61,982 nucleotides of DNA from Candidatus Aenigmatarchaeota archaeon (GTDB taxonomy: Archaea > Aenigmatarchaeota > Aenigmatarchaeia > GW2011-AR5), in the NCBI GenBank assembly GCA_016193585.1, contig JACPRW010000002.1, positions 1 through 61,982 on the forward strand, written 5' to 3'. Below are positions 5,538 through 57,175 of this stretch, in pieces. Numbering within the stretch: position 1 is the stretch's first letter; every line of letters starts with the position of its first letter. The position numbers were made by a program, and so were the translations under genes. The notes below the pieces were generated by a model. That model was not told where the DNA came from. It saw only the letters and a program-made list of their open reading frames with translations, and ran no database searches.

Positions 5538-5779
5538 TTATAGCTCTACGAGGAAACAATCTGGGTACTACTTCCTTGTGAGCTATACATGGTGAAACAA
5601 CGTTTCACCTGTACAGGTAAAGCTTTGCTTTACCATGTATGTGAAACCAGTTTTATAGCTCTACAAGGAAATAAACACGATATTACTTCCTTGTGAGCTA
5701 TATGTGAACCCAGAAATCATATCCAGATTCTTTTCTGGGTTCACTATATATGTCCAGGTTATGTGCTGGTTTCACTATA
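5538..5779. repeat. Cluster of four hairpin modules (acaaggaa/ttccttgt variants, gtgaacccag, ggtgaaac)
   Basis: Modules are shared with 1838-1935 and 37945-38038. The cluster supplies the stop codon of the 5759-6460 gene. Confidence 0.8.
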
Positions 5780-7684: not shown

Positions 7685-8128
7685 ATGGCACAATGGCGAT
7701 TGCATTCGAAGCGGAAAGCGACCGGCGGGCTACTCAGGCGCCGCAGCAAGAAGAAGCGCTACCAGCGCGGCAGCGATTTTTTGCCTGCGCACATCGGCCC
7801 GGCGAAGGTGCGGGAACTGCGCACGCACGGAAACAACACGATGCTCAGGGTTCTTTCCGCCCAGACGGCAAACGTTTCGGTGAACGGGAAAGCCAGAAAG
7901 GCAGCGATTACGACCGTCGCCGAAAACCCCGCAGACTCGCAGTTTGTGCGCCGGAACATCATCACCAAAGGGGCAATCCTGCTCACGGAGCTCGGCAGGG
8001 CACGGGTCACCGGAAGGCCGGGACGGGACGGCGCTGTGAACGCGGTGATAATCGACCAGGCGCCGAAGGCGCCAGCCGGCCGCGAGGAAAAGGCGGCGAA
8101 GAAGAGTTATAGTGAACCAAGTAAATAA
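7685..8128 (+). CDS. rps8e: Ribosomal protein S8e
   Basis: N-terminal MAQWRLHSKRKATGG...RKKRKYQRG matches the S8e signature. The stop codon lies inside a hairpin-repeat module. Confidence 0.85.
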   Translation: MAQWRLHSKRKATGGLLRRRSKKKRYQRGSDFLPAHIGPAKVRELRTHGNNTMLRVLSAQTANVSVNGKARKAAITTVAENPADSQFVRRNIITKGAILLTELGRARVTGRPGRDGAVNAVIIDQAPKAPAGREEKAAKKSYSEPSK

Positions 8129-8135
8129 TCAGTTA
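8108..8135. repeat. Half hairpin module (tatagtgaaccaagtaaataatcag) overlapping the S8e stop codon
   Basis: Same module as 29110-29165 and 22830-22853. Confidence 0.6.
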
Positions 8136-8208
8136 TTCTTGTCGGTAATTTAACGAGGAAAACGACCGAATGCTCTTCATAGACCAAAACAAAAGCCGCT
8201 TGGAACTT

Positions 8209-8304
8209 TATAGTGAAGCAAATAAATAATACCGATATTATACATTTGCTTCACATATAGCAAACAAGGAAGTAATATCGTGTTTATTTCCTTGTATTGC
8301 TATA
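8209..8304. repeat. Family A repeat, uninterrupted reference copy (module 1 plus module 2)
   Basis: tatagtgaagcaaataaataataccgatattatacatttgcttcacatatagcaaacaaggaagtaatatcgtgtttatttccttgtattgctata. Confidence 0.85.
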
Positions 8305-8376
8305 AATGCATTTCTATCTTTCCTTCCCGATTAGTCCCTTTCCCATCTCATGCTTTAATATCTTTTTTTTCATTGT

Positions 8377-13228: not shown

Positions 13229-13471
13229 ATGGGAATGTGCATGGGAAAAGAAACGGAACTCGAAGAACGAGGCAGAATTGTAATACCCAAAGACCTCAGG
13301 GAAGCATTGCACCTTAAACCAGGCCAAAAATTGCTCATTGAGCAACGAGGCAGAGAACTAGTGCTGAAACCGGCAGCCGATAAAGACCGTTTCCTTCGCG
13401 AACTGCAGGGATGCGTGAAAAAATCCGTGATAAAGCCGTTAGACGTCAAAAAAATCTGGGAAAAGGTATGA
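13229..13471 (+). CDS. vapB: AbrB/SpoVT-type antitoxin (VapB-like)
   Basis: GRIVIPKDLREALHLKPGQKL swapped-hairpin motif. Overlaps the downstream PIN gene by 3 nt. Confidence 0.7.
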   Translation: MGMCMGKETELEERGRIVIPKDLREALHLKPGQKLLIEQRGRELVLKPAADKDRFLRELQGCVKKSVIKPLDVKKIWEKV

Positions 13472-13896
13472 TTTTCATAGATTCCAATATGTGGTGCTAC
13501 TTCTTTGATGAATCCGCAAGAGAAAACAAGAAAGTCGTTGAATTCGTGAAAAGAATTTTAGAAAAAGAGGAAGTAGCCATAAATACTGCTGTAATTACAG
13601 AAATAGCGCATTTCCTTATCAAAAATCTTGGCCCGGTGAACGGGAAGAAAAAAATTGAAACGTTCCTCGAATTCCCGCTTGTGGTAAGAGACGTAACATA
13701 CGCCGATACCAAAGATTCTATTGAGCTACTGTGCCAGTATGCCCATGAAGGAATAGGTGGCAGGGATGCCACGCTGCTCAGCAGCATGAAAAAACTTGGC
13801 ATACAGAGAATTGCCACGCATGACGCGGCATTCAAAAAAGTAGAATGGGCAGATGTGATCGATCCGATACAAAATAATAATAGTAAAGAACATTGA
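13469..13896 (+). CDS. vapC: PIN-domain toxin (VapC-like)
   Basis: MIFIDSN start, acidic residues spaced as in PIN, IATHD motif. The stop codon lies inside a hairpin repeat. Confidence 0.7.
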
Positions 13897-13973
13897 TTTT
13901 GGAACATTTTACAATGTTCTTTCCATATAGCAGATTGTGGTAAAAGTTCCATTATTATTACAATCTGCTATAA
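13878..13973. repeat. Hairpin-module repeat lying exactly between convergent vapC and aspartate aminotransferase stop codons
   Basis: Copy of 463-560. Overlaps both stop codons. Confidence 0.85.
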
Positions 13974-16625: not shown

Positions 16626-16743
16626 AAAAAGCAGGTGGTTCTGATGCACCGTAACAGGAGGTATCGGAACTGCGAATAACATGGGATACCCTGAAGAGCA
16701 AAGCTCTTCGGGGTGCTCAAAAACCAAAAGGTCTTTGGCATGC

Positions 16744-16859
16744 CAAAGAAGCTGAGCTTCTTTGAGCATGACAGAAAGCACATGCTTTCTGCGCACGACG
16801 CACGGAGTGCGGGGTCAAGGATTATAGCATGGGATACGACGCACGGAGTGCGGGGTATT
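16744..16859 (+). promoter_or_regulatory. Structured leader upstream of pyk. Two short hairpins, then a duplicated CGACGCACGGAGTGCGGGGT motif, the second copy abutting the ATG.
   Basis: A near-identical arrangement (minus strand, 12282-12350) precedes the 12026-12280 gene. Confidence 0.45.
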
Positions 16860-20057: not shown

Positions 20058-20105
20058 TACAGAAACGTATTTAAATGATTATATCGATATAATCATAGTG
20101 GTGCT

Positions 20106-20327
20106 ATGGAAGGCATGGAAGCAAAGGTAAGAAAGTGGGGCAGATCAATAGGAATAGTTATACCAGTAGAAATCGCAGAGAAAGAAAAAATAAAGGTGAA
20201 CGACAACGTGGAAATTTTCATACGGAAGAAATCAAACGCAATACGAGAAACGTTCGGCACGCTCAGGCTTAAGGAACCTACCGAGAAAATTCTAAAAGAA
20301 ATAGACAAGGATTTGTGGCATGACTGA
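20106..20327 (+). CDS. vapB: AbrB/SpoVT-type antitoxin (VapB-like)
   Basis: GRSIGIVIPVEIAEKEKIKVND swapped-hairpin motif. Confidence 0.65.
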   Translation: MEGMEAKVRKWGRSIGIVIPVEIAEKEKIKVNDNVEIFIRKKSNAIRETFGTLRLKEPTEKILKEIDKDLWHD

Positions 20328-20682
20328 AACGGTATTTTTTGACACCTACGCATTCTTTGAGGTCATAAACGGGAATGCGAACTTCAAACGATTCGAAGAT
20401 GCCGATGTAGTGACAACTATTTTTAATCTCGTCGAACTTACTTATGGACTGAAGAAGAAAGAGAACAAAGCCGTAGCTGACAAGTATCTTGACAAGTACA
20501 AAAATCTTGCAGTTCCCATCGGGATAGAGGACATTAAAAATGCCACAGACATGAGACTCGCCTGTAAGGATATGTCATTTCCTGATGTCATAGGGTACGC
20601 CGTTGCCAAAAGGCTCGGTATAAAATTCGTAACAGGAGACTCCGATTTCGAAGGCATGGAAAACGTCGAACTTGTGAAATAA
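20320..20682 (+). CDS. vapC: PIN-domain toxin (VapC-like)
   Basis: FFDTYAFFE N-terminus. C-terminal TGDSDF motif. Confidence 0.65.
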   Translation: MTETVFFDTYAFFEVINGNANFKRFEDADVVTTIFNLVELTYGLKKKENKAVADKYLDKYKNLAVPIGIEDIKNATDMRLACKDMSFPDVIGYAVAKRLGIKFVTGDSDFEGMENVELVK

Positions 20683-22595: not shown

Positions 22596-22610
22596 AGTAC
22601 TGCGCCCGCT

Positions 22611-22853
22611 TATAGTGGACCAACAAAAGAATACCGACATAGTACTTTTGTTGTCCGCTACACGCGGAAAACAAGGTTTTCCGGTGCACCAAAAAGCTTT
22701 GCTTTTTGCGTGTAAGTGAACCAAGATATAGATAATTGCGCAGCTTATGTCGTATTAACGCGCAATTTTCTATAGGTGAATTGCAAATAATATCAGGACA
22801 TAACCAGTGCAATTCACCATATAATACCTGATTATTTACTTGGTTCACTATAA
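22611..22853. repeat. Composite hairpin-module repeat (about 240 bp), rearranged relative to 29045-29288
   Basis: Shares the aattgcgc, gtgaattgca and gtgaaccaag modules and a ggaaaacaaggttttcc hairpin. Track ORF 22555-22848 falls inside it and was rejected. Confidence 0.85.
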
Positions 22854-24211: not shown

Positions 24212-25189
24212 ATGCCCATGGCGCCGCCCAAGACTCCTGCTGCCGGTTTCTGGGTTGCCGTGCTGTTCATCACGCTTCTTTCGCTCTTCGCGGTATTCAG
24301 CCACGAGTTCATCGCATTCGGTGTCGCCGTCGGGCTCCTCATTGCAATCTACAAGCATTCGCCTGATGCGCAGCCGTTCCTGCGGAAGCTTATCCCTGCG
24401 GTAGTTGCCCTTGCCCTCATCGTCGAGAGCATCGTCATCATCGGCGCAGGCGAGCGCGGCGTCCTGCTCACGTTCGGGAAGGTCGAGGATGCGGTGTTCG
24501 GCGAAGGACTTCACTTCAAGATTCCGTACGTCCAGAGCGTTCCTGTCTTTAACGTGAAGACGCAGAAGTACGAGGCACTCGCTACCGCAGCCTCAAAAGA
24601 CCTGCAAGACGTGAAAACAACCGTCGCGCTTAACTTCAGGATTTCTTCCGACATGGTAAACAAGGTCTACCAGACGATCGGCATCGACTACGAAAACATC
24701 GTCATTGCCCCTGCTATCCAGGAATCGGTCAAGGCATCAACCGCCGGCTTCAATGCCGAGGAGCTCATCACCCAGCGGCCGGTCATCAAGCAGAAAATAG
24801 AAGAATCGCTCAAGGAGCGGCTCGGGGAACGGAACATCATCGTCGAAACCGTTTCGATAACCGATTTCCAGTTCTCGCCGGAGTTCTCCAAGGCAATCGA
24901 GCAGAAGCAGGTCGCCCAGCAGCTCGCGCTCAAGGCGGAGCGCGACCTGGATCGCATCAAGATCGAAGCGGAGCAGCTGCGGACGCAGGCGCTGGGAGAG
25001 GCTGACGCAAAGGTGACGCGCGCCAAGGCGGAGACTGAAGCGCTGAAACTGCAGCGCGACATCATCAACGAGCAGCTCCTCAGGCTGCGCGCCATCGAGA
25101 AATGGGACGGCATCCTGCCGAAAGTCACCGGCGCTGCGGTGCCGTTCATTGACGTGAGCACGCTTGGCGCCGTGAACAGCAGCGGCTAA
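24212..25189 (+). CDS. SPFH/Band-7 (stomatin/prohibitin-like) membrane protein
   Basis: N-terminal TM plus an SPFH core (GERGVLLTFGKV...) and a long coiled-coil tail. Confidence 0.8.
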   Translation: MPMAPPKTPAAGFWVAVLFITLLSLFAVFSHEFIAFGVAVGLLIAIYKHSPDAQPFLRKLIPAVVALALIVESIVIIGAGERGVLLTFGKVEDAVFGEGLHFKIPYVQSVPVFNVKTQKYEALATAASKDLQDVKTTVALNFRISSDMVNKVYQTIGIDYENIVIAPAIQESVKASTAGFNAEELITQRPVIKQKIEESLKERLGERNIIVETVSITDFQFSPEFSKAIEQKQVAQQLALKAERDLDRIKIEAEQLRTQALGEADAKVTRAKAETEALKLQRDIINEQLLRLRAIEKWDGILPKVTGAAVPFIDVSTLGAVNSSG

Positions 25190-25287: not shown

Positions 25288-25478
25288 TCATAGTAAAGAA
25301 CATTGATTTTGGAACATTTTACAATGTTCTTTCCCTATAGCAGATTGTGGTTATAGTGAAGCAAATAAATAATACCGATATTATACATTTGCTTCACATA
25401 TAGCAAACAAGGAAGTAATATCGTGTTTATTTCCTTGTATTGCTATAAAAGTTCCATTATTATTACAATCTGCTATCA
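25288..25478. repeat. Nested hairpin repeat. The family A unit (modules 1 plus 2) is inserted into the loop of the gcagattg hairpin.
   Basis: Compare with the uninterrupted copies at 463-560 and 13878-13973. The insert equals 8209-8304. The last module overlaps the valS stop codon. Confidence 0.85.
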
Positions 25479-27875
25479 GAGCTCGATTTTCAGCGCATCC
25501 CCGTACAGTATTTTCTGCACCGCATGCGCTGCTACGATGTCCTGTTCCAGTTTCCTGAATTTCTCAGGAACAGTCAGTTTGCTGATTCCTGTCTTCAGGG
25601 AAAGCCCGCCATCCTTCTTCGTCTTCCATATCTCCTTGTTCAGCTCCATAAGTTCATCTGCGGCGAAGCCCGGCACAAACGTTTCCTTTACCGAAGGAAA
25701 ATGCTCCTCGTGCACGTTCTTTCCCCGCAGGTCATTGTATATCCGGTGCGTCATCATGGGAATGACCGGCGCCAGCAGCTTGAGCATGGTATCGAGGCAG
25801 TAATTGAGCGTGAATACGGCGCTGTTCTGCTCCTCTTTCGGAAACCTGCCCTCATGGTTGTACGCGCGGCTCTTCACGAGCTCGATGTAATGCGAAGCGA
25901 ACGTTTCCCAGATGAAATGCTTGAGCCTTGTCGCCGGCATGTGGAAGTCATACGCTTCGTACCGCCCGCGCGCATACGTGATGAGTTCGTTCATCTCCTG
26001 CATTATCCATTTATCCGTTTCTGTCAGGCGCACGGCTGCGGGCTGCATCCTGAACTGGGATACGAAACGCGCGACATTCCACAGCTTCGTGAGCGTTTTG
26101 CCCGCGCCCTCGATGCGCTCGAAGGAGCAGCGCAGGTCGCCCTCGGCAAGGTTGCCTTCCACGGCGCACCAGAACCTGAACGGCTCGGCGCCGTACTTGT
26201 CGAGTATTTCGGCAGGATTGATGACGTTGCCCAGGCTTTTCGACATCTTCTTGCCGTGCTCGTCGACGATGTGGTGGTGTATCCAGACGTCCCTGAATAT
26301 CGGCTTTTTCGCCAAGTGGTAGCAGCGGAGCAGCGTGTAGTAGAGCCACGTGCGGACGATTTCCTTGCCCTGCGGCCGCAGCGTGCATTGCTGGTGCTTT
26401 GTGAAAAACTCTTTCGGGTAGCCGAGGATGTAGAGCGGCGAAATCGATGAGTCAAACCACGTGTCGAAAACGCGCTCCTCGCCGCGGAACTCGGTGCTCC
26501 CGCACCGGCACTTTTCTACCGGAGGCTTTTCCTTCCATGGACGGTAGTACTTTCCCTTCGGCGGGACGATGACCGTTCCGCAGGAGATGCAGTACCAGAG
26601 CGGCATCTCGGTGGCATAGTAGCGCCTCCTCGATATGGCCCAGTCGATGCTCACCGCGTCAATCCAGTCGAGCAGGAACTGCCTGCTGTGCGGGGAAAAG
26701 AACTCAATATCGTTCGCAATTTTCCGTATCGCGTCCTTGAACTCTACCTGCTTCAGGTAATATTCCGGCATGGTGATGTATTCAATCGTGTGTTTGCTCC
26801 GCTCGCAGATGGGGATGCGGTGCATCACCTTTTCCTCCTTGACGAGCCAACCGCGCTCTCTCAGATGCCTGATCATCTTCTTCCGCGCCTCTTCGACTTT
26901 CATGCCTTTCAGGAATCCTGCTACTTCGTTCATCGCGCCTTCGGTGGTTATCGCCGAGAGCGGCTCGATATGCATCTCGCGCAGGAACCGTATGGCGTCC
27001 TGGTCTCCTGCCGAGCGCGACATGAACACCAGGCCGGTGCCGAACGCCGGGTCGGCAAAAGGGTGCGCCTGAATCGGCACCTCGATGTCGTAGATGGGTA
27101 TGACTGCTGTCTTGCCGTCGAGGCTCGCGTAGCGCTTGTCCTCAGGGTTGAAGATGACCATCGCCGCGGTGCAGAGCAGCTCGGGCCGCGTCGTCGCGAT
27201 GACCGCTTTGCCTCCCGTTTCCTTGACCGTCAGCACGACATGGCTGAGCTGCGTCGGGACTTCCTTGTGGTCGACTTCCTCGTCAGCGAGCGTCGTCTTG
27301 CACCCCGGGCAGTAATTGTTCAGGCGGCTGTCCTCGTAGACGAGACCCCGGTGCCACATGTCGATGAACGTCGCCTGCGTGAGCGCGCGGTATTCGACAG
27401 AATCGGTATAATAAGCATCGCCAACTTCAGTTCCCGCGTTCCACGCGTTGAACGATATGCCCAGGCGCAGGAACGACTCGATGCTCGCCTCGGACGAGGC
27501 TTCGAGCACCTGCTGGCACATTTCAAGAAATTTTTCCCTGCTCACGTCCCGCAGCGACACGCCGAACTTTTTCTCTGCGGCGATTTCAATCGGCAGGCCG
27601 TTCCGGTCGAGCCCGAGGGGGAAGAGCACGTTGTGGCCGGTCATCCGCCTGAACCGCGCGAAGAAATCCATCATGGTGTACGTTGTCGCGTGGCCGATGT
27701 GTATCGGCGTGTTGACGTACGGCGGCGGCGTGTCGATGCTGAACAGCGGCTTTGGGCTGTTCCTGTCGAAGGCGTAGGATTTCTTTTCTTTCCACTCGCT
27801 GTAGACCTGCTTCTCCAGATCTTTCGACCATGACTTCTCAACAAGCACCGGTTCAGGGGTTACCATAGCCATCAC
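25476..27875 (-). CDS. valS: Valyl-tRNA synthetase
   Basis: PPYVNTPIHIGHA, ATTRPELL (ValRS hallmark) and KMSKSLGN. Confidence 0.85.
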   Translation of the reverse strand: MMAMVTPEPVLVEKSWSKDLEKQVYSEWKEKKSYAFDRNSPKPLFSIDTPPPYVNTPIHIGHATTYTMMDFFARFRRMTGHNVLFPLGLDRNGLPIEIAAEKKFGVSLRDVSREKFLEMCQQVLEASSEASIESFLRLGISFNAWNAGTEVGDAYYTDSVEYRALTQATFIDMWHRGLVYEDSRLNNYCPGCKTTLADEEVDHKEVPTQLSHVVLTVKETGGKAVIATTRPELLCTAAMVIFNPEDKRYASLDGKTAVIPIYDIEVPIQAHPFADPAFGTGLVFMSRSAGDQDAIRFLREMHIEPLSAITTEGAMNEVAGFLKGMKVEEARKKMIRHLRERGWLVKEEKVMHRIPICERSKHTIEYITMPEYYLKQVEFKDAIRKIANDIEFFSPHSRQFLLDWIDAVSIDWAISRRRYYATEMPLWYCISCGTVIVPPKGKYYRPWKEKPPVEKCRCGSTEFRGEERVFDTWFDSSISPLYILGYPKEFFTKHQQCTLRPQGKEIVRTWLYYTLLRCYHLAKKPIFRDVWIHHHIVDEHGKKMSKSLGNVINPAEILDKYGAEPFRFWCAVEGNLAEGDLRCSFERIEGAGKTLTKLWNVARFVSQFRMQPAAVRLTETDKWIMQEMNELITYARGRYEAYDFHMPATRLKHFIWETFASHYIELVKSRAYNHEGRFPKEEQNSAVFTLNYCLDTMLKLLAPVIPMMTHRIYNDLRGKNVHEEHFPSVKETFVPGFAADELMELNKEIWKTKKDGGLSLKTGISKLTVPEKFRKLEQDIVAAHAVQKILYGDALKIEL

Positions 27876-28790: not shown

Positions 28791-29044
28791 AATAATTATT
28801 GCTTTCTTTTGTTATAAGCATATCTCAAATCCGGGCTTTGGGACAAAACTCCATATCTTGTAGAAAAGATTTCAGCCAACACAACATATCGGTTCAAATC
28901 TTCACTTCGGTATCGAAAAGAAGAAATACGAAGTAGAGAATTATCTGATTAGCTATCGACTACTTTTGTCTCAAAGCTTATTCACTGCACTCCGAGTAAT
29001 ACGTCGTACAATGCATCGAATGTTGCGGTATCCGTGAAAGCAAA

Positions 29045-29288
29045 TATAGATAATTGCGCAGCTTATGTCGTATTAACGCGCAATTTTCTATAGGTGAATT
29101 GCAAATAATATCAGGACATATAGTGAACCAAGTAAATAATCAGGTATTATATCTTGGTTCACTTACACGCAAAAAGCAAAGCTTTTTGGTGCACCGGAAA
29201 ACTTTGTTTTCCGCGTGTAGCGGACAACAAAAGTATTATGTCGGTATTCTTTTGTTGGTCCACTATAACCAGTGCAATTCACCATATA
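29045..29288. repeat. Composite hairpin-module repeat (about 240 bp), partner of 22611-22853
   Basis: Track ORF 29054-29329 lies inside it and shares its peptide with ORF 22555-22848, so it is a repeat artefact. Confidence 0.85.
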
Positions 29289-29368: not shown

Positions 29369-29587
29369 ATGAAATCGAAAATGTTTACCGCAGTCCTGCG
29401 CAAGGAAGAAGATATGTATGTGGCGAAATGCGTAGAAGTAGGCACTGTAAGCCAAGGGAAGACAGTAGAACAAGCTTTGGCAAAACTCAAGGAAGCCACC
29501 GAGTTATATCTTGAAGAGTTTCCAATTAAGGAAGAATCAAAGCCATTGATGACCGTGTTCGAGGTGGCAGAAAGTGCCAAAGCTTAG
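29369..29587 (+). CDS. hicB: HicB-family antitoxin
   Basis: YVAKCVEVGTVSQGKTVEQALAKLKEATELYLEE matches the HicB/UPF0150 fold motif. Confidence 0.7.
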   Translation: MKSKMFTAVLRKEEDMYVAKCVEVGTVSQGKTVEQALAKLKEATELYLEEFPIKEESKPLMTVFEVAESAKA

Positions 29588-29816
29588 GAAAATCTCGGGC
29601 AAGGAGTGCATAAAGGCTCTTTATAAAATGGGTTTCAAGCCAGTAAGGCAGCGCGGAAGCCATGTCGTTTTGGTCAAATTAACGCCGGAAGGGAAAATAG
29701 GCACAGTGGTTCCACTTGACAAAGAACTCAAAATCGGACGCTCAAAGGAATCCTTGAGAAGGCCAAAGTGGACGAGGATGAATTTGCTAAGTTTATCTGA
29801 ACTTTTTGTTTTATAG
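29574..29816 (+). pseudogene. hicA: HicA-family toxin with a C-terminal frameshift (one missing base near 29740). Conserved TLKGILEKAKVDEDEFAKFI resumes in another frame.
   Basis: KALYKMGFKPVRQRGSHVVL is the HicA core. After ...ELKIG the canonical continuation is only readable at +2. Confidence 0.55.
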
Positions 29817-30508: not shown

Positions 30509-30527
30509 CGCGTTCACGAATGCTTTT

Positions 30528-30706
30528 TATAGTGAAGCAAATAAATAATACCGATATTATACATTTGCTTCACATATAGCAAACAAGGAAGTAATACAAG
30601 GTGGATTCCATGAATCCACCTGTACAGGAGAATCTTCGATTCTCCTCGTATCATGTTTATTTCCTTGTATTGCTATAATACGACATAAGCTGCGCAATTA
30701 TCTATA
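30528..30706. repeat. Family A repeat with inner insert, plus aattgcgc module
   Basis: Near-identical to 46-225. Confidence 0.85.
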
Positions 30707-33525: not shown

Positions 33526-33816
33526 TATATGGTGAATTGCACTGGTTATGTCCTGATATTATTTGCAATTCACCTATAGAAAATTGCGCGTTATAGTGAA
33601 GCAAATAAATAATACCGATATTATACATTTGCTTCACATATAGCAAACAAGGAAGTAATACAAGGTGATCGTGTTTATTTCCTTGTATTGCTATAATACG
33701 ACATAAGCTGCGCAATTATAGCTGACCAACTTAATATTCAGGTATTACACAAGTTGGTCACATATAGTGAACCAAGTTATAATATCCGGATTCTTTACTT
33801 GGTTAACTATATCTAT
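33526..33816. repeat. Composite hairpin-module repeat (gtgaattgca, aattgcgcg, family A with 8-nt footprint caaggtga, tgaccaactt and gtgaaccaag modules)
   Basis: Module 2 here carries only caaggtga where 97-213 carries the 56-nt insert. Confidence 0.85.
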
Positions 33817-33994: not shown

Positions 33995-34362
33995 GAAAGC
34001 GTGTGGGATCTGTTCTTGAATCCCCGTTGAAATCTACATGAACACCGGGTTGTCCTGATACGTTTGACCGGCGGGCACCGTGGATTACGAAGGATTATAG
34101 AAGGGCTGCCGGCAGAAGCCCTTGTGGACAAAGAATGGGGCATCAGAAAAGCCTAATACCCAGGCGGCTTCTTGTGGACATAGCCGGGAGCGTCCTTGTT
34201 CGCGTACACCGGCGGGGCTGACGGCTGGCAGGTGAATCCTGCAGCTTCCTTGTGCCATCGCTCCCTGAGAAAATCAGGAATATAGTCAACGCCAGCCATG
34301 CAATTCATTTCTTTACCGCCTTTAAATGCCCACCTAAAGTTGTAGTTTTACAAGTGATTCGC

Positions 34363-35028
34363 ATGTCCCAAAGACCGAGTAGCGTTGTGACAGTTTCCGG
34401 AAATGAAATCAAAGGGCATCTAAGGCAACTGGAGAAACGTACCCACGACGGCCGTCATCATCTTCACACGGTAACATCACGATTGGAACAAGGCAGCCTC
34501 GTCAGCTTGTACGAAATAGACAACCCAGAAATATGTAGTAGATTAGGCTATTTTGCAGATGACGATTTTCCATACTGGAAGATCCATGGAGCCTTTAAAG
34601 GTCCTTGTATCACAGCTCTGTTACTAATGGAGTCTGGTGGGCATACAACAGGGGATGGAAGGAAATGTTTACCATTTTCTAAGGCATTTGATTACGATTT
34701 TGGAGAATGTTTAGAACGTGCTATTCTTACCCAGTTAATCGCCCAGCAAGCACCATATGCAACGGATAGTTTCTTGGTTTGTGGCTACGAACGAGGGCAG
34801 CATGCGTTTAACGTTGTCTACATGCCTGAACACCCGTATCTAGTTGATACCATGAATCCTTTGCGTGAGGAGGGAAAGGCACGTGAACCGTACATTGCAC
34901 CCCTTACTGGAATTGAAGTCGTGGTAACTTCGCTCTACAGTAACTATCCTCCGCTGGAATCAGATAGGTTTTTGGTCCCTCCCCAATGGGAACGGGGAAG
35001 GTCATACAAGCTTGATTGGTCTCTTTAA
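34363..35028 (+). CDS. Hypothetical protein
   Basis: 221-aa ORF. Moderately AT-rich. No motif recognised. Confidence 0.45.
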   Translation: MSQRPSSVVTVSGNEIKGHLRQLEKRTHDGRHHLHTVTSRLEQGSLVSLYEIDNPEICSRLGYFADDDFPYWKIHGAFKGPCITALLLMESGGHTTGDGRKCLPFSKAFDYDFGECLERAILTQLIAQQAPYATDSFLVCGYERGQHAFNVVYMPEHPYLVDTMNPLREEGKAREPYIAPLTGIEVVVTSLYSNYPPLESDRFLVPPQWERGRSYKLDWSL

Positions 35029-36941: not shown

Positions 36942-37503
36942 ATGGCATACGATGTCAGGCTACATCCTGCCGCAGATGATTTTTTAAAATGCTCCCGAAA
37001 CATGTTTCTGCGAGAATCAAGGAAAAATTAATAGTATGTTCTGTTGATTAGTGAACATTTCATCTTGAATGCCTTGAAAACTGCTACCTTCAGGCAGCAA
37101 ATGCAACAAGGCATTCGGGATCTTCAAAGAGCAGAGCTCTTTGAGATCTCAACTGCGGAAAGCTTCCACTTTCCGCAGTTGCAGATGCCATGCTCCACGG
37201 AAACCACCGACTGCAGTCGGTGGTATAGAGGAGCATATCATGCAGAACATACCCTATAGCAGGTTCAGGTGAAAAGTTTGGTTATTACGTGAACCTACTA
37301 TAATAAGAGCCATAAAGGAAAATCCATTCCATTATCTTGAGCTTTTGAAAGGAGAAAACGTTTACAAGCTGCGCATCGGCGGCTACAGGGAACTGATAGA
37401 CATCGATTTCAGGGAAAAAGTTCTTTACGTCCGTGTTCTCGGCCACAGAAAAAGAATTTGCAATGGTAGTTGGATATGCCCCTCCTCATGCGCTTCAAGG
37501 TAA
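36942..37503 (+). pseudogene. relE: RelE/ParE-family toxin gene split by a 260-bp MITE insertion. N-fragment 36942-37031, C-fragment 37303-37503.
   Basis: N-part MAYDVRLHPAADDFLK... C-part IKENPFHYLELLKGENVYKLRIGGYRELIDIDFREKVLYVRVLGHRK. The C-part is in a different frame. Confidence 0.6.
37040..37302. mobile_element. Composite MITE (family B) inserted in relE. Core atgccatgctccacggaaaccaccgactgcagtcggtggtatagaggagcatatcatgc...ctatagcaggttc-hairpin-tactata, plus three extra hairpins.
   Basis: Second copy of the about 115-bp core at 54161-54277. Non-coding and all-hairpin. Confidence 0.75.
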
Positions 37504-37757
37504 GAGACCGTAGCATGGAGCCAGCGCTCCGTGAGGGCGACTACGTGCTCGTGAGCAGCGTGCCGTTCATGGTCAGACGGCCTGCTGCAGGCGACATTGT
37601 TGTCGCACGGCACAAGGGAATGTTCGTCATCAAGCGGATACGGGAGACAGAAGGAGACGTGTACACGCTTCTCGGAGACAACCCGCATGGCAGCGGCTTC
37701 CGCGTGCCGAAAAAAGCCATTGTCGGCAAGGTTGTCCTGCACGTACGGAAAAAATAA
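37470..37757 (+). CDS. sodX: S26-family signal-peptidase-like protease, candidate NiSOD maturation peptidase SodX
   Basis: Catalytic Ser in RDRSMEPALREGDYVLV and Lys in FVIKRIRE. 95 aa. About 4 kb from sodN. Confidence 0.6.
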   Translation: MDMPLLMRFKVRDRSMEPALREGDYVLVSSVPFMVRRPAAGDIVVARHKGMFVIKRIRETEGDVYTLLGDNPHGSGFRVPKKAIVGKVVLHVRKK

Positions 37758-37944
37758 AAAGGGCGGCGCACAGATAGCTTTGGTGATTTGATGGGCGACG
37801 ACGACCGTCAGGAGTTCTTCGAGGGCAAGAAGCGGAAGAAGTACCGACGCATCTACAAGAAGGGTCACCAGCGCGTGTACAAATGACGCTCTGAGCACTT
37901 CCAGCATTCGGTGCACAGATTGCTTAAATACTTAGCGTCATGGT

Positions 37945-38038
37945 TATAGTGAACCCAGAAAAGAATCTGGATATGATTTCTGGTTCACATATAGCTCACA
38001 AGGAAGTAATATCCTGTTTATTTCCTTGTAGAGCTATA
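37945..38038. repeat. Hairpin-module repeat (gtgaacccag plus acaaggaag modules)
   Basis: Modules shared with 1838-1935. Confidence 0.8.
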
Positions 38039-38059
38039 ATGCTCAGAGGGACCACCTGC

Positions 38060-38668: not shown

Positions 38669-38956
38669 CTGATTGTGCCGCTTCTCCAAGTGCCTGTCCG
38701 AAGGGGCGCTCGGAGCGCCGTATATGATGAAGCCTTTCTGATTCCCCCTCGTGATAGCAAGGTGGTTCCGCTGCTACCAATGGTCTGCCACCGCTCTATC
38801 CGTACCGGCACGTCCCGGCTGGTAACCTGCCGGTCACTCCGGCATGGCGTCATGTTATAGTTACTTTTCCGGTCAGGTCAGCATGAAAGTCCCGGTGGAG
38901 GCAATCCCCGTGGCAAAACTCCCCCATCCTGCCGGGGCGTGAAATACTCATGAAAT

Positions 38957-39043
38957 TATAGTTCTACAAGGAAAGATTTTGGATATTATTTCCTTGTGAA
39001 CTATAGGTGAACCCAGTCATAACATATCCTGATTATTTACTGG
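38957..39043. repeat. Hairpin-module repeat truncated by a poly-G tract
   Basis: Copy of 1838-1935 ends at gattatttactgg, then gatgggggaggggggggg. Confidence 0.8.
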
Positions 39044-39169: not shown

Positions 39170-42100
39170 ATGCTTCAATCTTCTCTGCAACCATCAGCAA
39201 GTGCCAAGCGCGTTCGCCGTACATGGTGCACCCTCTTCATACCCATTGCTGTCCTGCTTCTTGTAGCGAGTTTAAAGGCTACGCCTGCAGAAGCTGGATG
39301 CGTAACAGACGGTGGCTGGTCAGCAACGTGTAATTCTGGTAACATATACGGTGGAGGGGCCCCAAATACTAACCCATGCGTCAGAAGCGCAGGTGGATGC
39401 GGTATCGCATCAGTTGAATGCGAAAATGTTTGCTTGTTTTATAATAACAACTGCGGATTAGCTTCTGGTTGCTATTGCTCTGGGGGGAGTGTTTTGCAAC
39501 CATTCTGCGGGGGGCCGAACAAATGCTATAACCCAAAAGAACGCTATGGTAAAAGTGTTTGGTGCGGCAATGGAAAATATTGCGATCAGCAATGTGAGTG
39601 CGACAATTTATGCGGCGGCGCGCCGCCGCCGGGTAGCACGTGTTCAGCCGGCTGGAAATGCAAAAGCCCGACAACGAAAGGCTATCAGAGCAGCAACTGC
39701 GCATGGTCGCAGGAACAATACTGCAACTATGGCTGCTCCAATGGAAACTGCAATTCGGCTCCAGTGACGGCAAGCAATGACGCCGCTTTCGTAGAGCAAA
39801 CCGTGCCGTCAACGATGTGCGTCGGGCAGGTAGCGGCAGTAACCGTGAAAATGAGGAACACGGGAGGGTCGATATGGAATGCAGCTGACAATTACCGGCT
39901 TGGTGCGCAGAAGCCATCCCAAGACAGCGATCGGTGGGGCAATACAAGAGCTTATCTTGTGCCGTACATCAACTACTGGAACGGCGGTGTGGACACTGCG
40001 ACGTTCAACTCGCCGGGGTCAACGTGGAACGTGGTGCCCAATGCCGCGGGCACCTATGAGTTCCAGTGGCAGATGGTCAGGGATGGCGTTGGGTGGTTTG
40101 GCCAGAAGACGAATTCGGTGTCGGTGACCGTCCTTGCTGTGCCATCGTCGGCGCCGTCGCTGACGCAGCCTGCCTATAATCAAAAATTTCCCCCTGGCAC
40201 GTCGTCGGTGACGCTGAAGTGGAGCAGCGTCGACGGCGCGACCAGCTATGACGTGCGGGTCACCGATGATAACGATGCGGCGGATACGAGCAACATCGTC
40301 GGCGCAAATAGTAACTGTGCGCCAAGCTTAGACGTATGTTACGATGGCTGGACAAACAGAGAAATGACGATTACGGTGCAATCAGGCAAGCGGTACAAAT
40401 GGTGGGTGCACGCCAAAAACCAGTGCGGTTCTGGCGGCGGGTCGGCAAACTACGAATTTCTTGTCGATACCAACAGCCCGCCGGCGGCATCCATTGCTTC
40501 AGGCGCATCAGCCGGCTGCAGCGGCACTGCTTACACGTACGCCGCATCGGGCTCTGATGTGAACAGCAACCTCTACGATATAGCGCTCTATGTGTCTCCG
40601 ACATCCAGCAGGAGCGCGACATTGATGGGCGAATGCTCATTTGCGGACACGTCATCGTACAATTGCCAGAAGTCCTGGACACCGTCAGGAGCCGGCGCCT
40701 ATTACGTGTTCGTGAACGCGTGGGACCGGGCAGGCGGCCAGTGCTCTGGTAATCCATGGTGCGATTTCGATGGCGGCTCGCTCAGCTGCGACGCAGGCAG
40801 CAACTGCGTCTATTGTACGGGCTGGTCGCGCTGCGGGTCAAGCGACCGCACGACGGTCACCATTTCCAGCAATGAGTGCTCGGCAGCAGGCGTCATCGAA
40901 TGTTCCAGCAACCAGGCGCGCACCTGCGGCAGCAATTACGACGGCGATCCGTGCCTCGAATGGAGCTCGTACACGAGCTGCGGCAGCACGCAGTCGTGTG
41001 CATCAGGTTACAGCGGCTCCTGCGCCAATTCATGCAGCACAGCATCAGGTTGCGTCAGCTGTACGCTCACCTACACGGGAAGCTCGCCGACCTGCTGCGG
41101 CAATGACGGCACGAGCGTCGGCAGTAGCGGAACATGCTGTTCAAATCTTGTCAAGTGCGACGGCGTCTGCCGCAGCCGCAGTTCGTGCAGCTGCGACGAC
41201 GGCAATGCGTGCACCACCGGCGATACCATTCAGGCTGATGGCGTGTGCCGGGGGACAGCCTACGCGGCATCAGGAACGCCGTGCGGCACCACTGCATGCG
41301 GCTGGAACCAGGTCGGCAGCGGATGCACGCGGTACTGCAACGGCGCAGGAACCTGCAACAGCTGCCCGCCATCGTGCACGGCATCGTTTGGAACGTCCAT
41401 CGAATCGGTCTGCGTCAATAACGTGTGCAGCGGCGACGTGAGCGTGCCGACAACCGGCACCATTACGGCAGAGATTACCGTCAAAAACACTGGTGCCTTT
41501 TCCCAGGCGTGGTGGTTTGTCGGCGCCGAAGCCATGAGGGTCGGCAATTATAATGACCCCTATAACTCACGGTATGGCACGTCGCTCATCACGAAGTACT
41601 ACAACGGCAAAGACGATTACGGTGACTGCACGGTGAGCGACGCATCCGACATACCGTCAGGCGGAACACGGAAAATAACCTGCACCTTCCCTGCGGCGTC
41701 ATTTGGCGCAACGAGCGGCATCGAGCGCGTCATGTTCTGGGTGCATGAGCGGGACCTTGGCCAGGACAGGAACGGCGGCTGCGCGGTATGGGACGGGAGC
41801 AGTGATACGTACTACAAAACGTGCGGGAATGCAGTCAATTGTTACAGTGCCACTCCTGTCAGTTTATCGTGCGACCAACGCTATTATAGTCTCAGGAACG
41901 AGTTGCTGTCGCAGTACGGCCAGTGCTGGCAGTATGGTCAGAATGTGTGCAATGAACTCCAGGAATGGATAGAGTCTCTTGACAAATGCTATAGTCAGGC
42001 TGACTGCGATTTATTCAGAAATCATGCCCGGTATTCGTGCGACCCCAACCGCATCCCGATACCGAGTTACGTATGCGACAAGATGCAGCTGTACGACCAG

Positions 42101-44131
42101 AGATGTTACCGGAGCCGGTCGAATGGGTGCTGGGGCGGCTCGTGGTGGGACGACGCGCTCGCAACTGCAGCGCCTGCGGCGGTCAGGGTTTCGCTGATCG
42201 ACTGCACCGGTTCAGGCGGAGCGACTGGCCCCGGCGGTTACTGCTGCAGCGGCCTGACGAAATGCAGCGGCGACGTCTGCAGAAGCATCTGTACCGGCGA
42301 TTCCTGCAATGACGGCAGTCTGTGCACGTTCAATGACCGCATACAGGCTGACGGCTCGTGCAGGGGAACCATACACTCCTGCCCGGACGTGAAATGCGGG
42401 AGATTCGTGTGCGACGGCAACGGCGGGTGCACCGGCTCATACGTGAGCGTATGGTGCACCGACGACAATGCGTGCACCGCCGGCGATTTCTGCAGTGAAG
42501 GCTCCTGCCGGGCGACGGCCTACACCTGCCCTCCGCAGTCGTGCCCTGCTGATTCCTGCGCAAGCTCGACGTGGTACTCGACGTGGTACGATTACCCTGC
42601 GTCGTGCACGCGAAGCTGCCTCGGCAACGGCGCGTGCAGCGTCTGCGATTGCACGGCACAAACAACCGCGTGCACTGCCGGCAGCGGGTGCTGCGTTGCG
42701 CGGTGCTCAGCGGGCAGCGGGTGCTCGACAGCAGCAGGCTCGTGCGCTGATCTGTGCAGCGCGAATACGCTCACCATCGGACAAAGCTGCAGCGGGTGCG
42801 GGGCGAATGGCGCTGCAGGGAATTGTGGCGGCGGGACAAGTTATACGTGCGACGCGACATCGCATACGCTCTGTCAGCAATACTCATGCGGCGGCAGCAC
42901 GTACTCCTGCACGAATGCCGGCGGAAGCTGGTCGTGGAGAACAGCAACAGGCTGCAATGACAACAATGCATGCACGTACAACGACGCATGTGCAAGCGGC
43001 TCGTGCCGGGGAACGTCCTATGCGTGCAGCGACGTCTGCACCATGAACACGCTCACCATCGGCAGGGGATGCAACGGCGACGGCACGTGCGGCAGCGGCA
43101 CGTCCTATGCATGCGATGCCACAACGTACACGAGCGGCCAGCAGCTGACGTGTGGCGGTCTGCAGAAGTGCTGCACCTATGCCTCCGGCAGCTGGCAGTG
43201 GTCGTCATCGTGCGACAGCAATGCGCCATCCAGTGGCTGGACAGGCAGCAGCTTCGGGGCATATGATAATGACGGTACAGCATCAGCAACCGTATCATGC
43301 GCCGACAGCGGCAGCGGGCCGAAGGACGCGTGGGTCGCCAAAAAAGTCAATAATGCATGGCAGTACTACTGCGCTGACGGAACATGGCAGACGGACTCCG
43401 ACTGTAATAGCCACAATGGCATCGGCTTTTTATCATCCACGTATGCGTGCACCTCAACCGGCGCTGACGGACACCGTCTTCAATGTGCTGTCCGGTGCAG
43501 GGACAATGCGCTTAACGTTGATGCAAGCTGGGATTACACGACAGACTCATTAGTGGATACGTCTGCGCCAACATCTGGCTGGACAAGCAGCACCTTTGGG
43601 ACGTATGACACAGATGGCAGCGCTTCAGCTGTCACGTCGTGCAGTGATTCAGGAAGCGGAATCAGGGACGTATACGTAGCTTGGAGAGTCAATGGACTCT
43701 TTGCCAATTATGGTTATCAGGCATATCCCTATACCTGCACCTCAACCGGTTCTAATGGCCAGTATATTCAATGCGCTGTCCGGTGCAGGGACAATGCCGG
43801 CAATTTAGATGATAGCTGGGATTACACGGCTGGGACAATAGTGGACACTGCTCCTCCGTCCACCAGTTCTTCATCTTCCGTCACCGCCAACCAGTACAAC
43901 TGGTACACCTCGAACGTCGCGGTCACGCTGGCGTGCAGCGACACCGGCGGCAGCGGCTGCGGGGCGACGAAGTACTGCACCGATACGGCGGGCACGTGCA
44001 CGCCGACGACGACGTACAGCGCCGCGGTCACCATCAGCAGTCGAGAACCCTGCTCATCGACAAGACCGCGCCATCCGGCGTTTCGGTATCGAATACCAAC
44101 GGCTATTGGTCAGCAACAACCATACCCGTAA
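39170..44131 (+). CDS. Giant secreted Cys-rich adhesin-like protein, N-terminal 1,653 codons. Signal peptide, Cys-rich modules, CARDB/DUF11-like and FN3-like domains, four CxDxNxCT..D..C..G.CRG repeats, Ig-like repeats.
   Basis: Signal peptide MLQSSLQPSASAKRVRRTWCTLFIPIAVLLLVASLKATPAEA. About 150 Cys. The track frame ends in junk after AVTISS because of a frameshift at about 44040. Confidence 0.8.
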   Translation: MLQSSLQPSASAKRVRRTWCTLFIPIAVLLLVASLKATPAEAGCVTDGGWSATCNSGNIYGGGAPNTNPCVRSAGGCGIASVECENVCLFYNNNCGLASGCYCSGGSVLQPFCGGPNKCYNPKERYGKSVWCGNGKYCDQQCECDNLCGGAPPPGSTCSAGWKCKSPTTKGYQSSNCAWSQEQYCNYGCSNGNCNSAPVTASNDAAFVEQTVPSTMCVGQVAAVTVKMRNTGGSIWNAADNYRLGAQKPSQDSDRWGNTRAYLVPYINYWNGGVDTATFNSPGSTWNVVPNAAGTYEFQWQMVRDGVGWFGQKTNSVSVTVLAVPSSAPSLTQPAYNQKFPPGTSSVTLKWSSVDGATSYDVRVTDDNDAADTSNIVGANSNCAPSLDVCYDGWTNREMTITVQSGKRYKWWVHAKNQCGSGGGSANYEFLVDTNSPPAASIASGASAGCSGTAYTYAASGSDVNSNLYDIALYVSPTSSRSATLMGECSFADTSSYNCQKSWTPSGAGAYYVFVNAWDRAGGQCSGNPWCDFDGGSLSCDAGSNCVYCTGWSRCGSSDRTTVTISSNECSAAGVIECSSNQARTCGSNYDGDPCLEWSSYTSCGSTQSCASGYSGSCANSCSTASGCVSCTLTYTGSSPTCCGNDGTSVGSSGTCCSNLVKCDGVCRSRSSCSCDDGNACTTGDTIQADGVCRGTAYAASGTPCGTTACGWNQVGSGCTRYCNGAGTCNSCPPSCTASFGTSIESVCVNNVCSGDVSVPTTGTITAEITVKNTGAFSQAWWFVGAEAMRVGNYNDPYNSRYGTSLITKYYNGKDDYGDCTVSDASDIPSGGTRKITCTFPAASFGATSGIERVMFWVHERDLGQDRNGGCAVWDGSSDTYYKTCGNAVNCYSATPVSLSCDQRYYSLRNELLSQYGQCWQYGQNVCNELQEWIESLDKCYSQADCDLFRNHARYSCDPNRIPIPSYVCDKMQLYDQRCYRSRSNGCWGGSWWDDALATAAPAAVRVSLIDCTGSGGATGPGGYCCSGLTKCSGDVCRSICTGDSCNDGSLCTFNDRIQADGSCRGTIHSCPDVKCGRFVCDGNGGCTGSYVSVWCTDDNACTAGDFCSEGSCRATAYTCPPQSCPADSCASSTWYSTWYDYPASCTRSCLGNGACSVCDCTAQTTACTAGSGCCVARCSAGSGCSTAAGSCADLCSANTLTIGQSCSGCGANGAAGNCGGGTSYTCDATSHTLCQQYSCGGSTYSCTNAGGSWSWRTATGCNDNNACTYNDACASGSCRGTSYACSDVCTMNTLTIGRGCNGDGTCGSGTSYACDATTYTSGQQLTCGGLQKCCTYASGSWQWSSSCDSNAPSSGWTGSSFGAYDNDGTASATVSCADSGSGPKDAWVAKKVNNAWQYYCADGTWQTDSDCNSHNGIGFLSSTYACTSTGADGHRLQCAVRCRDNALNVDASWDYTTDSLVDTSAPTSGWTSSTFGTYDTDGSASAVTSCSDSGSGIRDVYVAWRVNGLFANYGYQAYPYTCTSTGSNGQYIQCAVRCRDNAGNLDDSWDYTAGTIVDTAPPSTSSSSSVTANQYNWYTSNVAVTLACSDTGGSGCGATKYCTDTAGTCTPTTTYSAAVTISSREPCSSTRPRHPAFRYRIPTAIGQQQPYP

Positions 44132-44600
44132 CGGTCAGCCGGGGCACCGACGCCCAGTCAGGCATGTCAGCAACCAATGCAGATTACCTCCTTGAGGTCG
44201 CCTCATCGGCACTGTCCGGAGGAACATGCCCCAGCTTTGGCGGCTATGCCGATGCCGGTGTCCCGGAAACAGCAGCTGCCACCAGCTACACCTATACCGG
44301 CACCTCGGGTAATTGTTATAAATTCCGCTACACCGTGGCGAATGCTGCGGGCTTGCCAATAACCTATACAGGAACCGATGTTACGAAAATCGACACGGCA
44401 GTTCCGGTAACTACGCCGTCGCTCTCTGGAACTGATGGCTGGAAAAGCTGGGGCGACTGGTACACCTCGAACGTCGCGGTCACGCTGGCGTGCAGCGACA
44501 CCGGCGGCAGCGGCTGCGGGGCGACGAAGTACTGCACCGATACGGCGGGCACGTGCACGCCGACGACGACGTACAGCGCCGCGGTCACCATCAGCAGTGC
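44042..44600 (+). CDS. Middle segment of the same giant gene, readable only in frame 1 (SRTLLIDKTAPSGVSVSNTNGYW ... YSAAVTISS)
   Basis: Part of track ORF 43933-44736. Bounded by two frameshifts at duplicated junctions. Confidence 0.6.
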
Positions 44601-57161: not shown

Positions 57162-57175
57162 ATATCTGCATCATT

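Follow-up and report, generated by a model that had tools for sequence, protein, structure and literature searches.

Self-nesting two-hairpin elements in an Aenigmatarchaeota genome: probable MITE-like repeats moved in trans

Background

What kind of genetic element builds the mosaics of short AT-rich hairpins found between the genes of a DPANN archaeon, and what kind of enzyme spreads them? The question is raised by positions 25288-25478 of a 61,982-nt stretch of DNA (hereafter the window, meaning the whole stretch that was analysed, itself a complete contig), where two convergent genes, one coding for an SPFH/Band-7 protein (24212-25189, +) and one for valyl-tRNA synthetase (ValRS; 25476-27875, -; Pfam tRNA-synt_1), enclose a dense succession of inverted repeats. 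The product of the latter gene is 100% identical to MBI2970998.1 from a Candidatus Aenigmarchaeota metagenome-assembled genome (MAG), which places the DNA in the DPANN archaea and agrees with the archaeal host assumed earlier; DPANN archaea have tiny, streamlined genomes. A first-pass annotation had listed 17 intergenic loci with such hairpins, each hairpin taken as a module bounded by TATAG and CTATA, and had likened them to the repetitive extragenic palindromes (REP) and bacterial interspersed mosaic elements (BIME) of bacteria, which are mobilised without target duplication by HUH transposases of the REP-associated tyrosine transposase (RAYT) or IS200-like kind. We find that a mobile, modular superfamily of hairpin repeats does occupy the intergenic DNA of this contig, and we argue below for a different recurring unit and a different manner of insertion.

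Structure of the focal locus

The focal stretch is one two-hairpin unit split by the insertion of another. From left to right it consists of TC, hairpin E, TATAG with the left arm of hairpin C, TA, hairpin A, ATATAG, hairpin B, TA, the remaining loop and right arm of C, and a second TC. Hairpin E of the outer, EC unit (25290-25340, +; stem AAAGAACATTG/CAATGTTCTTT with a 16-nt loop) ends at the central TATAG junction and represents a repeat family (D8) with three copies at 92-100% identity. The left arm of hairpin C (TATAGCAGATTGTGGT; 25336-25351, +) is separated from the rest of its loop and its right arm (...CAATCTGCTA; 25448-25475, +) by a 92-nt AB core (25354-25445, +), in which hairpin A (stem GTGAAGCAAAT/ATTTGCTTCAC) and hairpin B (stem ACAAGGAA/TTCCTTGT, outer pairs CAA/TTG) are joined by the conserved ATATAG junction. 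This core is recovered by a covariance model built from AB sequences (R1) at 106 bits (E = 2e-19), and the focal AB sequence is 100% identical to a solo AB unit at 8208-8305 (+).

Each of the two units is bracketed by a duplicated dinucleotide. The AB core lies between TA at 25352-25353 and TA at 25446-25447, and the EC unit between TC at 25288-25289 and TC at 25476-25477. The right-hand TC falls within the ValRS stop codon (TCA at 25476-25478, read as TGA on the minus strand), so that the duplication preserves the stop. When folded as single-stranded DNA the focal 195 nt reach -42.8 kcal/mol, as against -12.7 +/- 2.8 for shuffled sequences (z = -10.6), with hairpin E standing alone and the outer C stem enclosing hairpins A and B.

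Nested insertion with a 2-bp target-site duplication

The most direct evidence for mobility comes from copies that interrupt one another. All eight nested insertions are flanked TA/TA, and deletion of the inserted core together with one TA restores the uninterrupted host module, mostly exactly. Thus treated, the focal C hairpin matches the copy at 13926-13972 with 47/47 identities (allowing one 1-nt indel and an end overhang) and the copy at 512-559 with 46/48; two D hairpins holding AB in their loops are restored at 48/48 (the cluster at 1-224) and 40/40; hairpin B in the cluster at 1-224, freed of an F module, at 49/49; hairpin A2 at 22610-22853, freed of a DG unit, at 48/49; hairpin G at 29044-29288, freed of a 145-nt A2-F'-A1 composite, at 53/53; and the right arm of D at 33526-33816, freed of a JK unit, at 32/33. 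The eighth case, an F module in the TA of an A/B junction, gives a looser 55/62, the reference here being a different AB subfamily. Nesting can be reciprocal, in that DG sits inside A2 at 22610-22853 and A2-F'-A1 sits inside G at 29044-29288. Larger composites too move as units; the 145-nt composite, bounded by two A-type arms, was transposed whole.

The focal EC unit is informative on the origin of the flanks because it has TC on both sides where both paralogues, at 463-560 and 13878-13973, have TA. The flanking dinucleotide is therefore derived from the target and duplicated rather than being part of the element; it is a true 2-bp target-site duplication. Across many genomes TA brackets 104 of 106 AB copies on both sides, and in 65% of copies a T precedes the left TA and an A follows the right one. 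The target is a TA dinucleotide with variable neighbours, AB preferring T-TA-A; TC served once. New insertions often land in resident copies, in their TA-rich loops and arms or at the A/B junction, and this accounts for clusters that look nested and shuffled. Nested insertion at TA sites explains the varied orders and orientations of modules reported in the first-pass annotation. Moreover, Logan short-read contigs from at least ten samples break at, or within about 45 nt of, element boundaries, as expected for a dispersed repeat.

A common two-hairpin plan

The recurring unit is not the single hairpin proposed before. It is a non-coding composite of 96-98 nt with the plan TTATAG-(hairpin 1)-TATAG-(hairpin 2)-CTATAA, comprising a core of about 92-94 nt plus the duplicated dinucleotide, in which two imperfect hairpins with TATAG/CTATA at their stem bases stand side by side. 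Hairpins A and B occur almost always together as a unit of about 98 nt (TTATAG-TGAAnnnnn...nnnnnTTCAC-ATATAG-nnnACAAGGAA...TTCCTTGTAnnn-CTATAA), and the same pairing and length recur in EC (463-560, 13878-13973 and the focal copy), DG (22726-22823 and from 29044 onwards), JK (33716-33812) and unit I (47820-47916). The covariance model derived from AB sequences alone detects EC, DG, JK and I in the window at 23-52 bits. A GTGAA-type arm next to the terminal TATAG marks one hairpin of every family (A, K, G and, less strictly, E), and the other (B, J, D, C) is a family-specific partner.

Every individual hairpin is a pair of inverted arms, and all ten stems named in the first-pass annotation are indeed perfect inverted repeats at the loci given for them. 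The similarity between the two ends of a unit is much more variable: 12 of 15 positions match in JK and 12 of 14 in the A2-F'-A1 composite, the DG ends share AATTGC, and the AB ends share only TATAG. The TATAG and CTATA bounds hold for many modules; hairpin E begins with ATAG, and class F follows another pattern altogether, consisting of two short, GC-richer inverted hairpins that share a central TA (TA-CA(A)GG-hairpin-CCTG-TA-CAGG-hairpin-CC(A)TG-TA).

In all, about 19 clusters of AT-rich hairpin modules make up some 5% of the window, and all are intergenic or abut stop codons. TATAG occurs 140 times on the two strands, a 2.3-fold excess over dinucleotide-preserving shuffles (60.5 +/- 7.6; none of 100 reached 140), and the pattern of the A/B junction, TTCACMTATAGNNNACAAGGAA, occurs nine times in the 62-kb window against none expected. 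Identical copies are found at unrelated loci of the window.

Distribution and covariation

The modules recur well beyond the window. A scan for the AB junction pattern over one genome per prokaryotic species returned 53 loci, of which 50 belong to Aenigmatarchaeota or unclassified archaeal MAGs and carry the full two-hairpin unit; the other three (Bacillaceae, Saprospiraceae and Thermoplasmata) lack the hairpins and were discarded as chance matches. Metagenomes added 81 AB loci, bringing the total to about 130, and no match to the pattern was recovered from viral contigs. Among species-representative genomes, AB is confined to Aenigmatarchaeota and unclassified archaeal MAGs.

The density of AB varies widely, from at least nine copies per 62 kb in the window to two pattern matches in a 918-kb contig of the nearest sampled relative (chosen by its ValRS, 72% identical), whose syntenic 22 kb contain no element. 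Within a genome AB copies are up to 99-100% identical, which points to recent activity, and several subfamilies coexist; the JK unit is about 95% identical between the window contig and JAGVVU01. In three sets of loci from other Aenigmatarchaeota (L001/L032, L008/L027 and L018/L022/L023), AB occupies the same intergenic position beside orthologous genes of different species, and these positionally matched copies resemble other copies of their own genome more than their counterparts. This suggests repeated targeting of the same sites or homogenisation within genomes.

To characterise the constraint on the arms we aligned 106 AB copies (89 distinct sequences) over 27 stem pairs. In this set 98.4% of the stem cells are paired, with double changes at 14 of the 27 pairs; there are 233 double-change cells as opposed to 73 +/- 5 after shuffling (none of 500 shuffles reached 233), and sliding the partners by 1-3 columns as a control lowers pairing to 33-46%. 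The seven strongly covarying pairs comprise about 216 compensatory cells and only about four wobble (G-U) cells. Strict Watson-Crick complementarity of this sort, in which G-U pairing hardly occurs, is what DNA inverted repeats would show and an RNA fold would not, so the constraint acts on DNA.

How are the elements moved?

The elements insert at TA with a 2-bp duplication and are short, non-coding, multicopy and mainly intergenic, as are miniature transposable elements with inverted repeats (MITEs). We therefore favour the reading that they are MITE-like, duplicate a 2-bp target and are moved in trans; this reading, in which the enzyme is probably of the DDE type, we consider likely to be correct, and the DDE assignment taken by itself stands at even balance. 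A transposase encoded elsewhere in the genome would make 2-bp staggered cuts in the target. It would most likely belong to the IS630/Tc1/mariner class of DDE enzymes, because a 2-bp TA duplication with no further target requirement is the hallmark of that class, and the YAG-type termini (TA-TAG... and TA-CAGG...) fit that superfamily as well. The enzyme would recognise the terminal TATAG with the adjacent arm, and the complementarity of the arms might be kept either because both need to present the same binding sequence or because the elements pass through hairpin or cruciform intermediates.

Several observations weigh against this reading. The first concerns the enzyme. A search of about 60 open reading frames (ORFs) in the window with Pfam, NCBIfam and PADLOC revealed no transposase and no Y1_Tnp domain, the only recombinase being a tyrosine integrase tied to a tRNA-linked island; the window otherwise codes for housekeeping proteins, toxin-antitoxin modules and surface proteins, and the earlier statement that it lacks a transposase is upheld. 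We then clustered, all against all, first 346 and then 894 ORFs from about 790 kb around the roughly 130 AB copies. No recurrent transposase emerged from these 894 ORFs, not all singletons among which were scanned; the recurrent families are glycosyltransferases, PIN proteins, nucleotidyltransferases, PadR, ribosomal proteins, aminoacyl-tRNA synthetases and intein-bearing ATPases. Likewise, no IS-sized segment with matching TATAG ends enclosing a transposase was recovered, nor any full-length element in the window: inverted TATAG-initiated 15-mers 250-4500 nt apart led only to neighbouring elements and to an unrelated, AT-rich, eukaryote-like contig (L081). The second concerns the ends. The AB termini, having only TATAG in common, are not those of a classical MITE with long terminal inverted repeats (TIRs); a duplex of about 94 bp is very short for the synapsis of two ends in cis; and single-base bulges (CAC-A-TATAG in A, CCTTGT-A-GAG in B) are conserved throughout the phylum, which would be explained more naturally by a protein that reads a folded hairpin than by one that simply binds duplex TIRs. 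Finally, no polymorphism between filled and empty sites was recovered at any non-nested position, the exact-protein look-ups made for this having led only to short Logan contigs whose ends lie at the repeats or slightly within them (one look-up came back empty).

Three ORFs flanked by elements were considered as candidates for the enzyme. The 163-aa frame at 37425-37916 runs antisense to small toxin-antitoxin-like genes and is spurious, the 353-aa frame at 634-1695 (-) codes for an S-adenosylmethionine synthetase, and the 258-aa frame at 34252-35028 has no family match.

Alternatively, the elements may not be decayed derivatives of an ordinary insertion sequence (IS) at all, and may instead form a self-standing hairpin-replicator that persists vertically across Aenigmatarchaeota in the way that REPINs persist with their RAYTs. 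The enzyme, present in single copy and of a kind so far unconnected with elements like these, would then read the TATAG-footed bulged hairpin in place of a long TIR and integrate it with a 2-bp staggered cut, and the functional substrate would be the fixed 98-nt plan of a GTAAA-like 'GTGAA' hairpin plus partner. We regard this as an unlikely but by no means negligible alternative.

A closer equivalence with REP/BIME elements or REPINs, as initially proposed, would have a domesticated single-copy HUH enzyme (Y1, RAYT or IS200/IS605-like) recognise the TATAG-footed, bulged hairpins on single-stranded DNA, cut beside them and copy them to new sites. The likeness is considerable: both systems comprise short extragenic palindromes with a conserved short 5' motif (a 5-nt foot here, analogous to the GTAG of REP), conserved stem imperfections and mosaic clusters; the AB ends are different hairpins, as are the left and right ends of IS200/IS605 elements; the F modules are inverted hairpin pairs like REPINs; and persistence through the phylum at low to moderate copy number with lineage-specific variants resembles REPIN-RAYT dynamics (bioRxiv 10.1101/2021.07.10.451892). 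The insertion mechanism is where the comparison fails. HUH transposition makes no target-site duplication, whereas all eight nested events show a 2-bp duplication and the focal EC unit adds TC/TC. Y1 transposases find their targets by guide-based recognition of a tetra- or pentanucleotide, for which a dinucleotide with variable neighbours is too short. G-T wobble pairs, which single-strand hairpins would tolerate, are almost absent. Further, the GTAG of REP precedes an imperfect palindrome and TATAG is itself part of the stem, so that the likeness in architecture is no more than an analogy. REPs normally lie on either side of their RAYT gene, yet no RAYT-like gene was found in the approximately 790 kb of flanking sequence, where a regular-expression screen for an HUH...Y motif, admittedly crude, returned none of the ORFs of 95-260 aa. 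The HUH partner anticipated by the first-pass annotation has thus not materialised near the hairpins, and we judge this mechanism rather improbable.

The flanking TA...TA would take on a different meaning, that of a crossover dinucleotide instead of a repair-generated duplication, if strands were exchanged at a 2-bp core by a site-specific or other non-DDE enzyme; this might be a serine recombinase of the IS607 type working through a circular intermediate, or an enzyme of some unknown kind. A serine-recombinase crossover puts an identical dinucleotide on either side of the insert, which would account for TA/TA and TC/TC alike, elements of the IS607 family occur commonly in archaea, and no DDE partner has come to light; still, no serine recombinase was seen in the window or among the recurrent neighbours, and a strong TA preference with minimal other specificity is the signature of IS630/Tc1/mariner. 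This makes it a distinctly doubtful proposition.

That the units are genes for structured RNAs, or cis-regulatory RNA motifs (terminators or stabilisers, for instance), conserved for the way the RNA folds and not mobile DNA, is hardly credible: although the covariation is very strong, the length of about 98 nt is conserved across many genomes and the elements are intergenic, often beside gene ends or starts, the pairing avoids G-U, the units occur in both orientations relative to flanking genes (12 divergent, 8 and 7 tandem and 7 convergent, without clear bias) and they nest in one another with target duplications. Rfam contained no family that reached its gathering threshold, the sub-threshold matches to miRNA and sRNA models being generic hairpin matches. 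Individual copies may nonetheless be transcribed or exapted.

Comparison with known elements

The MITE-like reading finds its nearest precedents among small bacterial repeats. RUP of Streptococcus pneumoniae, attributed to IS630-Spn1, the Correia/NEMIS repeats of Neisseria and ERIC/MITEEc1 are TA-flanked MITEs of about 100-150 bp which, like the present elements, are small, non-coding, A+T-rich, mainly intergenic and hairpin-forming, end in TA with target duplication and lack a transposase of their own (PMC2229807). They differ in folding as one long stem-loop with TIRs of 7-26 bp, as opposed to two separate hairpins whose AB ends share only TATAG, and in being bacterial where the host here is a DPANN archaeon. 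Correia repeats begin TATAGTGGA... (PMC5039591), which resembles the A arm TATAGTGAA/TATAGTGGA, and their start, TATAGTGGATTAAC...ATCAGGACA, looks like A arms such as TATAGTGGACCAACAAAAGAATACCGACA; TATAGTG(G/A)A and the TA duplication are present in both, and one AB copy (L034) shares the 10-mer AATCAGGACA with a Correia repeat. Beyond TATAG the similarity to the Correia TIR (26 bp) is not significant, an anchored alignment against 46 A arms having given a best score of 9 where shuffled sequences averaged 7.7 (sd 1.3; p ~0.24), and we treat it as a resemblance only.

Among archaea, the SM1-SM4 MITEs of Sulfolobus solfataricus (Redder et al. 2001, cited in PMC10969869) are likewise non-autonomous and present in tens of copies, and their mobilisation is believed to be the work, in trans, of transposases from resident IS. 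Going by that summary description, their partner IS are known from TIR similarity, whereas none was found here, and it describes neither a two-hairpin plan nor systematic self-nesting for the SM elements. In behaviour the present family stands nearest to these SM elements of Sulfolobus and to the small bacterial MITEs flanked by TA (RUP, Correia/NEMIS, ERIC).

Two further groups share particular features. The PATEs of haloarchaea, which Dyall-Smith and colleagues are said to have described in 2011 as palindrome-associated elements derived from IS200/IS605, are reportedly also archaeal and non-autonomous, with sub-terminal hairpins for ends in place of long TIRs. Their insertion point is said, however, to lie 3' of a fixed tetra- or pentanucleotide, with no duplication, and their ends to be shared with IS1341-type elements, neither of which holds here. 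The Stowaway MITEs and Tc1-mariner transposons of eukaryotes have the TA target and duplication, the short palindromic form and the YAG-type termini in common with our elements, and the F modules start TA-CAGGT..., as mariner ends do; Stowaway elements exceed ours in length and have defined TIRs matching those of known transposases, in contrast to two-hairpin units of about 98 nt without a known transposase.

The possibility that the repeats are ordinary TIR-bounded MITEs of a known IS family with target-site duplications had been named in advance as the finding that would overturn the REP/BIME interpretation. The duplications are indeed present; the tie to a known IS family did not appear. 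On the reading we favour, the family is an unusually minimal, self-nesting new variant of the TA-duplicating MITEs, specific to Aenigmatarchaeota. In the open-access literature we found no description of an Aenigmatarchaeota two-hairpin family, and automated surveys have already counted many MITEs in archaeal genomes, DPANN included (PMC11602168).

Inventory of clusters in the window

The 17 loci listed in the first-pass annotation are all real, and two more belong with them: an F-type pair of short GC-rich hairpins at 16740-16795 (+; CAAAGAAGC..., CAGAAAGC...) and unit I at 47820-47916 (+; 29.7 bits), a 97-nt pair of D-like hairpins (AAATGCGCAGC..., AATTGCGTT...). The simplest clusters are single units. 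Uninterrupted EC units with TA/TA flanks lie at 463-560 and 13878-13973 (both +), and AB units at 1837-1935 (-; subfamily GTGAACCCAGT / TTC, 104 bits with the covariance model), at 37944-38039 (+), where the CTATAA end precedes the likely start codons of a metallophosphoesterase gene by 21-33 nt, and at 38956-39043 (-), where hairpin A is truncated. A truncated A-type left arm with part of its loop remains at 8108-8135 (+).

The composite clusters begin at 1-224 (+) with a reverse hairpin G cut by the contig start, followed by D with AB in its loop, this AB having an F pair in its B loop. At 5538-5780 (-) an outer AB has been invaded twice, by a second AB (5653-5749) in the A loop and by an F pair at the TA of the A/B junction. 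The cluster at 22610-22853 (+) is an A1-F'-A2 composite with a whole DG unit in the A2 loop, and that at 29044-29288 (+) a DG unit with an A2-F'-A1 composite in the G loop. At 30527-30706 (+) an AB with F in its B loop precedes the right half of a D whose left half is missing. The cluster at 33526-33816 (+) consists of a reverse G and a D interrupted by AB, with JK inserted at a TA in the right arm of D, and an AB at 47235-47440 (+) has one F-type pair at its A/B junction and a second in its B loop. The locus at 37040-37302 (+) does belong to the set; it consists, however, mostly of several GC-richer F-type hairpins, followed by a single EC-like unit (stem CAGGTTCA.../...GAACCTAC), and a second member of that family (D14) at 54161-54277 (+) is 84% identical to 37208-37303.

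In the AB copy of the cluster at 33526-33816 the B loop (33654-33675) holds the 8-nt sequence CAAGGTGA at about 33661-33668, equal to the first seven nt of F plus one A, at the exact site where other AB copies carry a full 52-nt F with its TA duplication. This remnant may be an excision footprint or a simple internal deletion.

Other features of the contig

Toxin-antitoxin-type genes are dense for a small genome, with three PIN genes, HicA, a RelE-like gene and MazE (13411-13896, 20320-20682, 29574-29816, 37345-37503 and 52724-53531); several adjoin element clusters, and beside AB units of other genomes the genes that recur most are those for PIN proteins and nucleotidyltransferases. The frame at 634-1695 (-), situated between two element loci, codes for a bacterial-type S-adenosylmethionine synthetase (MetK domains N, M and C) and has an atypical codon-position GC content (0.66/0.49/0.53); the gene may have been transferred.

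Both tRNA genes of the window were recovered with Rfam and missed by ARAGORN. In that at 4676-4804 the anticodon-loop position is interrupted by 64 nt, which presumably represent an archaeal intron. The other, at 54532-54651 (58 bits), also contains an intron and is overlapped and followed by a gene for a 475-aa tyrosine recombinase (54581-56005; Phage_integrase, with a weak XerA-like match), a combination that looks like an integrated element at a tRNA gene. Just upstream, at 54334-54497, three to four perfect 50-nt tandem repeats each start with CCCGCGATAG, the first 10 nt of the 5' end of this tRNA gene, and may be reiterated att or tRNA-fragment copies from repeated integration. The integrase adjoins an AT-rich island (56000-61982; 33-35% GC against about 53% elsewhere) that codes for a Pycsar-type cyclase homologue (56163-57161, -; PADLOC PycC, E = 2e-24; Pfam Guanylate_cyc) and contains four ORFs without a significant family match, one of which has just two NCBIfam matches, both far below cutoff. 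Probably this is a defence island gained by horizontal transfer; it extends past the contig end.

Three intergenic sites (4814-4843, 20067-20096 and 47480-47509) combine G(T)TTTAAAT with a directly following perfect 22-nt AT-rich palindrome, e.g. GTATTTAAATGATTATATCGATATAATCAT; two of them lie upstream of small toxin-antitoxin-like or regulator genes, and they look like a TATA box with an operator palindrome. Lastly, exact direct repeats of 143 nt (plus 36 nt), 557 nt apart (43899-44041 / 44456-44598 and 43442-43857), span the end of a 1653-aa ORF (39170-44131) and the start of a 774-aa ORF (44435-46759), both of which lack Pfam matches and code for putative surface proteins rich in Cys, Thr and Gly. 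A recent internal duplication may have produced these repeats, or the assembly may have collapsed here.

Implications for host genes and for the family

The elements lie close enough to genes to matter to them. They directly abut the stop codons of eRF1 (22854) and ValRS (25476), and at many loci an element ends 18-37 nt from the start of an ORF that reads outward, as where an AB unit ends at 38039 and the ATG follows at 38060 or 38072. Outward-facing ends read CTATAA, which resembles an archaeal TATA box, and judging from this sequence and its position element ends may supply or replace TATA boxes; the same spacing would also arise from a preference for insertion into TA-rich promoter DNA. 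On the practical side, the elements break short-read assemblies and, lying against stop codons and 20-35 nt upstream of start codons, can affect gene annotation and possibly expression.

For the biology of the group, the finding means that about 5% of a contig consists of self-nesting elements of about 98 nt in spite of the streamlining of DPANN genomes, and that the main family, present across many Aenigmatarchaeota genomes, has hairpin arms which co-evolve. Their two-hairpin plan, almost without a shared terminal repeat, with conserved bulges and with no detectable partner transposase, makes them a test case for the minimal substrate of a transposon, and the family bears on whether long-term persistence of the kind seen in REPINs exists in archaea.

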